Of a DNA stretch of 64,000 nt, positions 45,557 to 48,723 are shown piece by piece. Every line of letters begins with the position of its first letter. Within the stretch, counting starts at the first letter, position 1. The notes below the pieces were generated by a model that was given only the letters and a program-made list of their open reading frames with translations, had not been told where the DNA came from and made no database searches. The position numbers were made by a program, and so were the translations under genes. Source of the DNA: a virus; IMG/VR virus record IMGVR_UViG_3300002036_000007, positions 242-64,241 of that record, one strand, 5' to 3'.

Positions 45557-45871
45557 TTACGCTGAAAGCTTATTTTTAGCGTCAAGATGACAAATGATAG
45601 CGATCATGCACAACATGGCGAATGAACAAAAAGCAGAACCCGCCGCTAGCAATGAACGCACTATCGAGTCAAAGCCTGTTAAACGCTCTGCGGCATGCAC
45701 CATAGGAACCGTTGCAACAATTATTAGTAAGCAAAGGAACGTAAAAATTGCCACCCGTACTCGCCCTGGTTTTTCAGCGTTTCCAGCCATACACATGATT
45801 AACATAAACACAATCCAATAAACGCCCATACCAACATCAGTCATAAAAAAAACAATCAGCGATTCAAACAT
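45557..45871 (-). CDS. 3-TM membrane protein
   Basis: Three hydrophobic helices. Confidence 0.65.
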   Translation of the reverse strand: MFESLIVFFMTDVGMGVYWIVFMLIMCMAGNAEKPGRVRVAIFTFLCLLIIVATVPMVHAAERLTGFDSIVRSLLAAGSAFCSFAMLCMIAIICHLDAKNKLSA

Positions 45872-45968
45872 GTATCACCCAATCAATAAACATAAGAATG
45901 TATCCAATGGCCACGAATGCCGCGTAAATCACAAGGCCACAGGCAGCTAGTTTGATGAACTTACTCAC
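45864..45968 (-). CDS. 34-aa single-TM peptide (not in ORF track)
   Basis: GTG start; MSKFIKLAACGLVIYAAFVAIGYILMFIDWVIHV; overlaps both neighbours. Confidence 0.5.
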   Translation of the reverse strand: MSKFIKLAACGLVIYAAFVAIGYILMFIDWVIHV

Positions 45969-46288
45969 GGATTCAAGTTAAGCAACTGACTGGTTTCATT
46001 GTCCAGTCCGTATCCTTCAGGAATGCGCTTGTCAACGTACTCATCCCTGCGCTGTTGTTTGCGCTGTCTTGTCATCCAGGGCTCAAGGAATGTCCAGTGG
46101 CCAAACTCATCCAGGTGACATCTTTTGTTTACACCATAAACGTTAACAACGCGCTCCCCAGGAACACTCTTGAATCCACCAGATGGCCTGCACAACCAGT
46201 CAGCGCTAAGCGCATCGGATATACCACCGCCTTTAGCGCAGCCTGCCAGCACCCAAACAGATGCCACAATAAGCAATGCGGCTTTCAT
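45965..46288 (-). CDS. lipoprotein
   Basis: MKAALLIVASVWVLAG-C lipobox. Confidence 0.7.
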   Translation of the reverse strand: MKAALLIVASVWVLAGCAKGGGISDALSADWLCRPSGGFKSVPGERVVNVYGVNKRCHLDEFGHWTFLEPWMTRQRKQQRRDEYVDKRIPEGYGLDNETSQLLNLNP

Positions 46289-46797
46289 TGGACACCTTTC
46301 GCTGTCAGATAGTTGAGTTCACTTTGACTAAGGGCTGCCGGTTGAATCGGTTCGTCTAGCTGTTCTGGTTCGTACAGAAAAGCTGGGCCGCGATCTGTGT
46401 CTACGTATTTGGCGTGTATCAAGCCCAGTTCGCGCTCGATGTTATGCGCCTTTTGTATCATCGGTATGGTCATTGAATTGACCGGTGTTGCACGAGTTTG
46501 CTCTGCCATTTGCATGAGCACCCTGACTTGGTTCTGGTCTATTTTTTCATCATCGGTTAATTCGACCTCCTGTAACGACTCCTGTTGCATCACCACGATT
46601 TGCTGACCATTTGGGTGCCGCTGCACTAGCTGACGTTCTATAACAGGCTGGCTAGGCATCTGGTTAATGATGATCGGCTGTAGCGGTTGTGCTGGCGTTT
46701 GCACTTGCACCGAACGGTCAGGTTGCAAGAACGGCGAATTTAACGTGCAGCCGCTCGCTAGAACTGCGCTTAGTAATGCTGTGGTTCGTAGTTTCAT
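46285..46797 (-). CDS. lipoprotein with a Q/P-rich linker
   Basis: MKLRTTALLSAVLASG-C lipobox. Confidence 0.7.
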   Translation of the reverse strand: MKLRTTALLSAVLASGCTLNSPFLQPDRSVQVQTPAQPLQPIIINQMPSQPVIERQLVQRHPNGQQIVVMQQESLQEVELTDDEKIDQNQVRVLMQMAEQTRATPVNSMTIPMIQKAHNIERELGLIHAKYVDTDRGPAFLYEPEQLDEPIQPAALSQSELNYLTAKGVQ

Positions 46798-46805
46798 TGT
46801 GGCCC

Positions 46806-47336
46806 CTATTTAACTAAAGAAAACTTTGCCTTGACAGGCTTGGTAACGATGTATGATCTGCCGCTCTTTTTTAAGTACTTCTGTTTGGACAATTCAATTT
46901 TGACCTTGTTGATCAAAGGATCGCCCATGCTGTATGGCTTGGCTCGACCAGTCTTATTGATAAATGCAGAGCCGTCTGGAATCACATCATTGTCGATATC
47001 GCGCTTTATCCACTCCACCATTTTCAATAGGTGGTCTGAATTCACTGTGCCCGTTTTGCCTTTACCTTTGCCGGTTTTGGTTGGCGTACGCTTAGCTTTC
47101 CTCTTGGCTGCAGATTTCTTCTTGGGCGCGGCCTTTTTTCTAACAACTGGCTTCTTACCCTTGCTGGCTACCTTTCTAACTATCCTGCTACCGGGATTGG
47201 AAGCGATTGATCGAATATCAACGACCTTCTTATCATCAGACAGTGGTTCAACCGGCTTATTGTTGGTCTCGGCAAGCCTGGTATCGGCGGTGCTGTTTCC
47301 ACTCTGACCGCCGAAATTTCGACTTGCCGTTACCCC
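46806..47336 (-). CDS. -1 frame extension of the 47330-48142 membrane protein (Lys-rich histone-like segment plus HTH-like end)
   Basis: Frame open from the slippery site to the stop at 46806, with no ATG/GTG/TTG for ~96 codons before the GTG at 47045. Confidence 0.7.
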   Translation of the reverse strand, partial: GVTASRNFGGQSGNSTADTRLAETNNKPVEPLSDDKKVVDIRSIASNPGSRIVRKVASKGKKPVVRKKAAPKKKSAAKRKAKRTPTKTGKGKGKTGTVNSDHLLKMVEWIKRDIDNDVIPDGSAFINKTGRAKPYSMGDPLINKVKIELSKQKYLKKSGRSYIVTKPVKAKFSLVK

Positions 47337-48142
47337 TTTTTTGGCGATACCTCTTCACCTTCGTCTATGTCGATGGTCAGGTTTCGCTTGCCGTTCAGGT
47401 TGCTCAACATAATGGTCATGCTGAGCGGAAACAGCGTTAAGAAAAACGCCTTCGCAAGCGCCCAAGCAAACGGCGAAACGTGAGTCTTCTCTTCCATCTT
47501 GTCTAGCGACTTTTGAAGCGGGCTGAGTGATGACGCATCGGTCGCCTGATTAACTTCAGCGGTTGCTTGATCAAGCTGCCTATATTGCGCCTGTGCTGCT
47601 TTGTCGGTCACTGAAACATAGTCGGAATTAGTCTCGCCAAGTCTGTCTAATTGCCCTCCTGCTGCCTTTGCTCTCGCATTAGCAATGCCCATAAGTGCTT
47701 GGCCTCTTGGCGAATTATCGACCTCGGCCTGAATGCCGGTGAATGTCTCATTCATAAACATGGCCGTACTGGTGTAGATACTGATGCCTTCACCTATAAG
47801 CAGTATGCAGCCCATTAAGAAAACATTCAGATGCCTTCCAGCGCTGTAGTTAAGACCAATGTAATAAGCTGAAATATGAGCGCAAATAATGAACAAGCAA
47901 AATGTAAAAACAGTGGCAACCTTTACCCATGTTTCAGCCTGTGCGGCTTGCGCCAACCCAAATCCGCTGGCCTGTCTTAGCGATATAGCGATACAAACCC
48001 AGCCCAGTACGATTCCAATCCAAAGCAGTTTTTGCCAGGATATGATTCGCTTCAAATGAAGCACGACATTTTTAACGGGTTGTTTTGGTTTCTCGTCAAG
48101 CTTCTTCCTGCCCCACCATGTACGCTCTGCTGCTGCACTCAT
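47330..48142 (-). CDS. membrane protein: 3 TM + coiled-coil-like loop + 1 TM; ends in a slippery site
   Basis: Four hydrophobic helices; ends CCA AAA AAG GGG TAA. Confidence 0.75.
   Translation of the reverse strand: MSAAAERTWWGRKKLDEKPKQPVKNVVLHLKRIISWQKLLWIGIVLGWVCIAISLRQASGFGLAQAAQAETWVKVATVFTFCLFIICAHISAYYIGLNYSAGRHLNVFLMGCILLIGEGISIYTSTAMFMNETFTGIQAEVDNSPRGQALMGIANARAKAAGGQLDRLGETNSDYVSVTDKAAQAQYRQLDQATAEVNQATDASSLSPLQKSLDKMEEKTHVSPFAWALAKAFFLTLFPLSMTIMLSNLNGKRNLTIDIDEGEEVSPKKG
47336..47342 (-). other. putative -1 ribosomal frameshift heptamer A_AAA_AAG
   Basis: Minus strand AGGTGAAGAGGTATCGCC-AAAAAAG-GGGTAA; SD-like GAGGT upstream; stem TCGGCGGT/ACCGCCGA downstream. Confidence 0.7.
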
Positions 48143-48648
48143 TTGGAATTACCTCGATTTTGTTGTGCTGTTAGATGGCTATCACCAGCCCAAAACGACG
48201 CAGTGAAAGACGCGACAATGCCAAGCGCGAAAAGTATCTGCATATCGATTTTCATTGGCAGGAATATCGCCACAGCCAGAAAAGTGACGCCGGAACACAT
48301 CGACCCAATTTGGACACTGATTCGATATGTGAAAAAAACAAACGGAATCAGGGCCAATTGCATCAACACCGCCAGCATTGCTCGCTCTATATCAATCAAA
48401 TGCTCGGGTGATGCGTCGTGGATCGCAAAGCCAGTTGCAGCCCACATGGCGACACCAGGCAAGCCAGAGGCGATCAGCGGTGCTAGCTGTCCATAACAGT
48501 CCTTATCGACCGCCGCAAAGCTATTGGGGTCTTGCGCTACAGAGCTTCTACCGGGCGGCAGAGCTTCAATGACTGGCAGATATTGCGACGGTTCGAGCGC
48601 AACAGCAAGCGCACTCTCCCCGCCGTTGCTATGATTAGCGTGGGACAT
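48139..48648 (-). CDS. 4-TM membrane protein
   Basis: Hydrophobic helices in the C-terminal two thirds; GGAG RBS. Confidence 0.7.
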   Translation of the reverse strand: MSHANHSNGGESALAVALEPSQYLPVIEALPPGRSSVAQDPNSFAAVDKDCYGQLAPLIASGLPGVAMWAATGFAIHDASPEHLIDIERAMLAVLMQLALIPFVFFTYRISVQIGSMCSGVTFLAVAIFLPMKIDMQILFALGIVASFTASFWAGDSHLTAQQNRGNSK

Positions 48649-48674
48649 TGATAGACTCCAGACAGTCTGTTGGT

Positions 48675-48723
48675 GTGTCCGATAGTTGGCGCTATCGGAT
48701 ACGGGGCGGCATTTTTGCCGTCC
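48675..48723. promoter_or_regulatory. two adjacent hairpins in the leader of the envelope operon
   Basis: GTGTCCGATAG-TTGGCG-CTATCGGATAC and GGGCGGCA-TTTT-TGCCGTCC. Confidence 0.55.

Follow-up and report, generated by a model that had tools for sequence, protein, structure and literature searches.

Programmed frameshifts are known in phages mainly from tail chaperone genes and in bacteria from dnaX and insertion sequences. ToxR, CadC, and TcpP carry a winged helix that is tethered to the inner membrane, and the Omega repressor of pSM19035 binds arrays of 7-bp heptads. SieA of phage P22 is a prophage-borne, polytopic inner-membrane protein of superinfection exclusion that acts on DNA entry; its gene is found close to those of small repressors (sieA-orf59a-mnt) and away from the immunity and lysis regions, and sieA, orf59a, and mnt also occur together on a resistance plasmid (PMC10883804). 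SpdB2 is an oligomeric membrane protein with four transmembrane (TM) segments that binds double-stranded DNA and forms pores; its gene stands among others for small membrane proteins, and actinophages encode relatives of the protein (PMC4447253). In this study, we analyzed a 64,000-nucleotide stretch of DNA of a marine, temperate phage, here called the window, which comprises bases 242 to 64241 of the 66,178-bp IMG/VR virus contig IMGVR_UViG_3300002036_000007 (estimated completeness, 85%). It carries a minus-strand operon of small envelope-protein genes, the second of which, g2, encodes a polytopic membrane protein and ends in a slippery sequence that would give access to a predicted DNA-binding domain in the -1 frame.

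We regard it as highly probable that the locus is a real cassette with a conserved frameshift and a winged-helix tail. Its role is proposed more tentatively. The whole statement, that the cassette encodes a prophage accessory complex which would span the envelope, tether DNA at the inner membrane, and most likely exclude incoming DNA, is plausible, though somewhat less likely than not.

Conserved frameshift at the end of g2

All six minus-strand open reading frames (ORFs) proposed by the first-pass annotation were found at its coordinates. Their starts and stops overlapped as it had described, by ATGA at 48139/48142 and 46285/46288, by GTGA at 45965/45968, and by 8 nt at 45864/45871. The features of the operon are listed in the direction of transcription.

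48649 to 48745, minus strand: leader before g1, with hairpins of 5 bp and 8 bp and the inverted repeat I4 at 48675 to 48702
48139 to 48648, minus strand: g1, 169-aa inner-membrane protein with 3 to 4 TM segments (hydropathy) and the conserved motif YR..G..S..F..VA..PM
47330 to 48142, minus strand: short form of g2 (270 aa), 4 TM segments; a helical hairpin of about 95 aa separates TM3 from TM4
47336 to 47342, minus strand: -1 slippery heptamer A_AAA_AAG, read in phase as CCA AAA AAG, two codons upstream of the g2 stop
46806 to 47336, minus strand: -1-frame tail, 176 codons and a stop, which contains the motif VTAS, a Lys-rich linker, and a predicted winged-helix domain of about 75 aa; the long form of g2 would have 444 aa
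46285 to 46797, minus strand: lipo1, 170-aa predicted lipoprotein with a Pro/Gln-rich N-terminal stretch
45965 to 46288, minus strand: lipo2, 107-aa predicted lipoprotein, lipobox LAGC
45864 to 45968, minus strand: pep34, 34-codon ORF with 1 TM segment and a GTG start, unproven as a gene
45557 to 45871, minus strand: g6, 104-aa protein with 3 TM segments

Two close relatives of g2 (64 to 65% identity) were found among 5.8 billion clustered proteins, and a profile search of 1.84 billion representatives added nine distant ones (E values, 1.5e-41 to 8e-4). The resulting g2 family comprises 12 proteins, all of them metagenomic and encoded on short contigs of 1.1 to 11.9 kb. The frameshift was surveyed in the 11 distinct loci with DNA, which include the window and the loci designated L002, L003, L005, L006, L007, L008, and L011 to L014.

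In the window, the 3' end of g2 reads CCA AAA AAG GGG TAA (CCA AAA AAG, positions 47344 to 47336), and the open stretch of the -1 frame runs from five codons ahead of the lysines to position 46806. This frame contains no ATG, GTG, or TTG start in its first 97 codons, the earliest candidate being a GTG at 47045. An in-phase slippery heptamer was present in 11/11 loci, 0 to 11 codons before the g2 stop, as A_AAA_AAG in 10 loci and as G_GGA_AAG in L005. It was kept across 20 to 67% protein identity, including in L013, which has GC-rich flanks. The -1 frame was likewise open in all 11 loci, for 68 to 186 codons, and encoded a predicted GntR-like winged-helix domain. At the protein level it was conserved from the slip site on, starting with the motif V-T/A-T-A-S, and the substitutions between the window and L002 at codon positions 1/2/3 numbered 27/23/63 in the tail and 61/40/134 in g2 itself. 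The GAGG upstream of the heptamer in the window and L002 was missing in L003, and RNAalifold revealed no conserved pairs 3' of the slip site across the 11 loci.

The first-pass annotation had described an optional frameshift tail on g2, and the in-phase heptamer with an open, conserved -1 frame in every locus bears this out. Judged by these alignments, the tail is real, far beyond chance, and the frameshift is the best-supported feature of the module. The sequence strongly implies that a minority of ribosomes slip by -1 on A_AAA_AAG and add 176 residues, so that a 444-aa long product probably exists as a protein; most ribosomes would stop at 47330 and yield the 270-aa membrane protein. Because the signal was kept in every relative examined, the isoforms and their ratio must matter. 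In the literature, we found no described case of a frameshift that adds a DNA-binding domain to a polytopic membrane protein.

The reading frames themselves were compared by using a codon model trained on 14 late genes of the same phage. Each ORF and the -1-frame tail scored best in its own frame, but the margin for pep34 was negligible over 35 codons, and this ORF is therefore unproven as a gene. Shine-Dalgarno-like sequences preceded g1, g2, lipo1, lipo2, and g6, whereas pep34 had no clear ribosome-binding site. The 101 nt before g1 folded with -30.6 kcal/mol, compared with -20.7 ± 3.2 kcal/mol for shuffled sequences (z = -3.2), which lends modest support to the structured leader that had been suggested for the operon.

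Predicted folds and membrane topology

A structure model of the last 85 residues of the tail reached a predicted local distance difference test score (pLDDT) of 80. The top 50 Foldseek matches of this model in the PDB were all GntR-family winged-helix DNA-binding domains, with template modeling scores (TM-scores) of 0.5 to 0.67 and root mean square deviations of about 2 to 3 Å, and the E values of these matches were just 0.01 to 0.2. At the sequence level, the domain had no Pfam match and no PDB profile match below an E value of 0.27. The model thus points to a GntR-like winged-helix DNA-binding domain, whose three helices and beta-hairpin wing could be superposed on GntR structures of the PDB. 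A Lys-rich stretch precedes the winged helix in the window, L002, L005, L008, and L012, and the winged helix follows almost directly in L007, L013, and L014.

The AlphaFold model of g2 (pLDDT, 78) contains four long TM helices and the hairpin of about 95 residues between TM3 and TM4. In 12/12 members of the family, loop 1 has 0 or 1 Lys/Arg residue, whereas Lys/Arg residues abound at the C terminus; in 9/12 members, the hairpin carries a net acidic charge. Under the positive-inside rule, this charge distribution suggests that the N and C termini of g2, and hence the tail, are cytoplasmic and that the hairpin is periplasmic.

The only named structural neighbors of the g2 model in the AFDB clusters and the ESM Atlas were DUF2637 and DUF4407 membrane proteins (TM-score, 0.4 to 0.5), and DUF2637 was the top named match in both collections, at a TM-score of just 0.40 to 0.47. 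The DUF2637 model (PF10935) matched none of the 12 members at an E value of ≤1 and nothing in a six-frame genome search at an E value of ≤10, and the DUF4407 model (PF14362) matched one of the 12 (E value, 0.5). A wide PDB structure search with the g2 model returned generic helical hairpins only, with Z scores below 8. The BFVD search returned only uncharacterized proteins of uncultured phages, several of which have a g2-like layout, and look-ups of g2, lipo1, and g1 in the ESM Atlas led to unnamed clusters only. Two candidate identities were rejected: homology of the g2 family to SpdB, for which the hhalign probability against pIJ101 SpdB was 0.1%, and lipo1 as a TraV lipoprotein, for which the ESM Atlas match scored 0.75, below the useful level.

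The lipobox of lipo2 (LAGC, residues 14 to 17) is canonical, and that of lipo1 (ASGC, residues 14 to 17) is near-canonical and follows a signal peptide, so both proteins are predicted lipoproteins, as had been claimed. The claimed membrane segments were recovered for g2 (four), pep34 (one, in an ORF unproven as a gene), and g6 (three), whereas g1, which had been credited with four, has three to four by hydropathy. Searches of Pfam, PHROGs, NCBIfam, and PADLOC gave nothing significant for the six proteins or the tail. This absence of known family matches supports the description of the operon as a set of unclassified envelope genes that encode inner-membrane components, lipoproteins, and a predicted DNA-binding isoform.

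Conserved core of the cassette

A g1 homologue lies directly upstream of g2 in the window, L002, L003, L006, L011, and L012. It is also found upstream of g2 in L008, with an extra 61-aa membrane gene in between, and it is absent in L007, L013, and L014. In the seven loci with a g1 homologue, the ATGA overlap between g2 and the gene that precedes it was always kept.

In six loci, namely, the window, L003, L005, L008, L011, and L012, the tail is followed by an ORF whose N terminus is of the lipoprotein type. The ATG of lipo1 stands 8 nt after the tail stop codon (window 46798 to 46808). In L008, the ORF begins 13 nt after the tail stop (2041 to 2057) and shares 65% identity with the N-terminal 53 residues of lipo1 (E value, 3e-18), and in L011 its ATG overlaps the tail stop (6304 to 6307). 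The ORFs in L003, L005, and L012 have a signal-peptide start and are cut by the contig end. No lipoprotein-type gene follows the tail in L006, L007, L013, and L014. The source's 275-aa gene call at 5870 to 6697 of L011 crosses the TGA stop codon of the tail frame as well as a masked stretch of N (6316 to 6332), and the tail and the following lipoprotein are therefore annotated there as one gene.

The other three genes behaved differently. Among the 5.8 billion proteins, lipo2 was a singleton; lipo1 had no full-length relative. No match to pep34 or g6 was found on the relatives' contigs, most of which end before that point. L011, the only relative with several kilobases downstream, has a helix-turn-helix gene and a membrane nuclease-like gene in place of lipo2, pep34, and g6. 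The co-occurrence of genes elsewhere, on which the first-pass annotation had proposed to judge the module, was thus seen for g1, g2 with its tail, and one lipoprotein, whereas lipo2 had no relative and pep34 and g6 had none on the contigs compared, and the view of six genes as a conserved unit does not hold. On the evidence of these loci, the conserved unit is g2 with its tail, usually accompanied by g1 and one lipoprotein; lipo2, pep34, and g6 are lineage-specific additions.

The neighborhoods of the g2 family vary, with capsid genes in L011, fiber-like genes in L013, and GIY-YIG/T5orf172 genes in L007 and the window. In L006, a gene at 1901 to 3655 that is convergent with the g2 relative encodes a 584-aa type IV secretion system (T4SS) coupling protein (VirD4/TraG/TrwB Pfam families). 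Because this relative adjoins a T4SS coupling protein gene, the g2 family is not confined to phages. The stretch belongs to a rare, mobile accessory cassette that is found in marine phages and in at least one further mobile element.

Searches beyond these contigs yielded no further members. Cultured phages and plasmids gave no match by megablast and tblastn with the region, g2, and two further window proteins. When g2, the g2 and tail alignments, and other window proteins, including a 737-aa late protein, were used in pattern scans of IMG/VR, JGI metagenomes, and GTDB genomes, no relative was confirmed.

Divergent operon, heptad array, and nuclease genes

Upstream of g1, the cassette includes elements that were missing from the first-pass annotation: a divergent operon that encodes a ribbon-helix-helix (RHH)-like protein and a Pro/Glu-rich protein, and an array of heptads in the control region.

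48818 to 49126, both strands: heptad array, nine copies of A[AC][AC]CACG, four on one strand (48818 to 48973) and five on the other (49002 to 49126), partly with 24-nt spacing
49262 to 49441, plus strand: small basic protein, 59 aa, divergent from g1, RHH-like by eye only
50036 to 50278, plus strand: Pro/Glu-repeat protein, 80 aa, the repeat being N terminal; the second of the conserved genes in the divergent operon

Of the 34 copies of A[AC][AC]CACG in the window, 9 fall within 613 nt, where about 0.3 would be expected (37-fold enrichment). The copies in the relatives are largely intergenic as well (7/7 in L002, 9/10 in L003, and 7/10 in L011), and the arrays lie at 514 to 813 in L002, 514 to 739 in L003, and 4168 to 4419 in L011. 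All four loci have 7 to 9 intergenic heptads in two opposite-strand blocks that point inward, though the DNA has otherwise diverged. The heptads are 19 to 46 nt apart, often with a spacing of 22 to 24 or 33 to 37 nt.

The 59-aa RHH-like protein has a homologue at the same divergent position in L011 (E value, 8e-8), and small genes that resemble it occur in L002, L003, and L006; it had no Pfam match and no PDB profile match. Genes of the Pro/Glu type follow the RHH-like gene in L002 (1 to 162), L003 (38 to 244), and L011 (3748 to 3972). Their products have 54 to 80 aa, with a hydrophobic start and then a Pro/Glu (or Pro/Lys) repeat, and they are always encoded downstream of the RHH-like gene. 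The divergent operon and the heptad array belong to the same conserved cassette as g1 and g2.

Nuclease genes were observed at several positions. GIY-YIG/T5orf172 genes lie on both flanks of the cassette in the window, at 43608 to 44099 and 49438 to 50025, and one of them follows the RHH-like gene. In L007, a GIY-YIG gene (1462 to 2220) stands right after the g2 tail, and its product carries two C-terminal copies of the tail winged helix (46% and 32% identity). A further window gene, at 3618 to 4319, encodes a T5orf172/GIY-YIG-like N-terminal domain followed by a winged-helix-looking C-terminal region and is the third nuclease-plus-DNA-binding gene in the genome. These arrangements suggest that homing-type nucleases borrow DNA-binding domains of the cassette. 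Such borrowing in turn suggests that the domains of the cassette read specific sites and that the cassette is mobile.

Genome context

The late genes, including those for the terminase large subunit and the head-tail adaptor, are on the plus strand between about 5 and 42.8 kb, and the last of them ends at 42822. The only long minus-strand block of the window (42979 to 48648) lies between this gene and the recombinase/integration region. An M15-type endolysin gene is located at 2815 to 3504, on the strand opposite to the operon and 43 kb away, in agreement with the orientation that had been given for the late and lysis genes. A CI-like repressor is encoded at 60589 to 61284, and the replication genes, at 61.7 kb onwards and 0 to 2.4 kb, are away from the operon.

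Two more genes on the operon strand begin 75 nt after g6. They encode an acidic, soluble protein of 135 aa (45074 to 45481) and a short tyrosine recombinase of 265 aa (44273 to 45070), with only 3 nt between them. Both may be part of the operon transcript; neither adjoins any g2 relative. About 830 nt downstream of the endolysin gene, a 171-aa predicted lipoprotein (4335 to 4850; lipobox TTGC) without a PHROG family match is a candidate for a lysis component of the spanin type. In the vicinity of the endolysin, no separate holin was recognized.

Proposed role and alternative explanations

In the proposed complex, short g2, probably together with g1, would form an oligomer in the inner membrane, in which a few g2 subunits bear DNA-binding arms. 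The hairpin, if periplasmic as predicted, could reach outer-membrane lipoproteins. Because shifted ribosomes would end at the lipo1 start and nonshifted ones 533 nt before it, lipo1 synthesis is perhaps tied to the long isoform; lipo1 would then be made in step with the long form and tie it to the outer membrane. The resulting envelope-spanning complex would hold DNA at the inner membrane. Expressed from the prophage, it would catch or block entering DNA, either in superinfection or entry exclusion or in an abortive response, and it would be controlled from the divergent promoter region with the heptad array by the small RHH-like protein. The first-pass annotation had likewise proposed a lysogen-expressed complex that might serve superinfection exclusion, abortive infection, or DNA transfer. 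A role on entering DNA is favored because the operon is placed between the recombinase/integration region and the last late gene and is transcribed opposite to the late genes, and because the neighborhoods are varied, with phage structural genes, a T4SS coupling protein, and homing-type nucleases. It is also favored by the separate location of the lysis and immunity regions and by analogy with P22 sieA, an injection blocker gene beside the mnt repressor gene.

Several observations weigh against this role. None of the six proteins matched a PHROG exclusion family, and no module protein matched a PADLOC component model below an E value of 0.006. To our knowledge, known exclusion proteins have no DNA-binding domains, so simple injection blocking does not account for a winged helix that is universally kept. 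The heptad array would suit a regulator or a centromere equally well. Scans for a sigma-70-like promoter or a terminator gave nothing above chance, the ESM Atlas's own model of lipo1 is poor, and the membership of the three relative-less genes in the complex is pure inference.

The winged helix and the heptads could instead belong to a membrane-tethered transcription regulator. The hairpin and the lipoproteins would sense an envelope signal, the winged helix of the long form would bind the heptads and control the divergent operons, and the short form would titrate or silence the long one. This arrangement would be like that of ToxR/CadC-type regulators, with outer-membrane lipoprotein input as in Rcs or Cpx. 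It draws on the GntR-type fold predicted for the tail, on a dense, conserved array of 7 to 9 heptads that adjoins the operon in four loci, and on the cassette's own small DNA-binding protein (RHH-like by eye only), and the L007 GIY-YIG protein with its two winged-helix copies (46% identity) suggests site-specific reading. However, the RHH-like protein suffices to explain the heptads, and the Lys-rich, histone-like linker of many members suggests nonspecific DNA binding. No heptad array is present near g2 in L007, L013, and L014, loci that lack g1 or the RHH-like gene, and a minor isoform is an odd route to a regulator; on balance, we consider a regulator a serious rival but unlikely. An anchor or conduit for the element's own DNA also appears improbable, though it deserves weight. 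Here the long form would tie the genome, perhaps at the heptads, to the inner membrane for replication, segregation, or transfer, as with phi29 p16.7 or Streptomyces Spd. The T4SS coupling protein gene beside one relative (L006) and the likeness of the repeat array to iterons or centromeres agree with such a function, and the best named structural neighbors of g2 are the DUF2637 and DUF4407 membrane proteins. SpdB2 offers a precedent as a 4-TM, oligomeric membrane protein that binds double-stranded DNA (PMC4447253). Nevertheless, a phage with an integrase, an attP region, and a CI-like repressor needs no partition system, the cassette has no partition or transfer ATPase, and the replication genes lie elsewhere (61.7 kb onwards and 0 to 2.4 kb). 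Moreover, pIJ101 SpdB is unrelated by profile comparison.

The remaining two explanations question the module itself. The tail could be a separate, internally started gene, and lipo2, pep34, and g6 could be unrelated morons that merely stand head to tail. Gene callers gave the tail a separate ORF in L002, L006, L008, and L012, the GTG at 47045 could start a 79-aa winged-helix protein, and lipo2 has no relatives. This explanation is nonetheless very unlikely, since the -1-frame protein is conserved upstream of every possible start, right from the heptamer, and the heptamer is in phase in all 11 loci across 20 to 67% protein identity, including a high-GC genome; the start/stop overlaps of 4 to 8 nt down to g6 argue for a single transcript. 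A second lysis cassette is the least probable explanation and can hardly be maintained. Small membrane proteins beside Pro-rich lipoproteins do look like sets of holins and spanins, and the endolysin has no separate holin identified near it. A match to holin or spanin families, which the first-pass annotation had named as evidence against an unexplained module, was sought in Pfam and PHROGs, and none was found below an E value of 0.01; the sole PHROG spanin match, to lipo2, covered the signal peptide only (E value, 0.012). In addition, an i-spanin is anchored by a single N-terminal segment, unlike the polytopic g2, and lysis would have no use for a cytoplasmic tail that binds DNA. The operon and the endolysin gene are 43 kb apart on opposite strands, and a lipoprotein candidate is already present near the endolysin (4335 to 4850).

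If the proposed complex does act on entering DNA, it would represent a new route of superinfection or entry exclusion, in which sensing at the envelope is coupled to the capture of DNA, a theme recently seen in the Zorya and Kiwa defense systems. Should it instead be a regulator or an anchor, a prophage would have a new means of connecting the cell envelope with its own genome. In the broadest form, the cassette would encode a new envelope-spanning machine of phages and mobile elements, in which the frameshift sets the number of subunits with DNA arms in an inner-membrane oligomer, an outer-membrane lipoprotein is cotranslated with the long isoform, and the complex seizes entering DNA or holds its own. 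We put this forward as a possibility that is more likely wrong than right. The cassette is small and can be tested in a laboratory host.

Comparison with known systems

The six module proteins have no sequence relation to SieA (no PHROG match). SieA works alone, without a DNA-binding domain, a frameshift, or a lipoprotein partner. With the Streptomyces Spd proteins, the locus shares a four-TM membrane protein whose gene is surrounded by others for small membrane proteins, on mobile elements and in some phages. The Spd proteins differ in that they belong to actinobacteria, act together with the DNA pump TraB, and involve neither a frameshift nor lipoproteins. DUF2637 and DUF4407 proteins have the same layout as g2, with several TM segments and a long helical hairpin, and they are set apart by family models that do not match.

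ToxR, CadC, and TcpP resemble the predicted long form of g2 in that their winged helix is held at the inner membrane and connected with a part in the periplasm. Their winged helix is N terminal, of the OmpR type, and attached to a single TM segment, whereas that of g2 would be C terminal, GntR-like, placed after four TM segments, and made only by frameshifting. The divergent control region recalls the Omega repressor of pSM19035, since a small RHH-type protein is encoded beside direct and inverted 7-bp repeats. In contrast to the Omega system, the heptads here are 19 to 46 nt apart and not contiguous, and the 59-aa protein is RHH-like by eye only.

The closest parallels to the frameshift itself are dnaX, which encodes tau and gamma, and the phage tail chaperone G/GT. 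The in-phase heptamers are the same, A_AAA_AAG in dnaX and G_GGA_AAG in lambda G/GT. There, likewise, two proteins with a common N terminus are made, presumably in a fixed ratio, and the slippery site immediately precedes the zero-frame stop. In the g2 loci, no conserved RNA structure was seen 3' of this site. They differ in what the shift would produce: in g2, whose products are predicted from the sequence, it extends a polytopic membrane protein with a DNA-binding domain.

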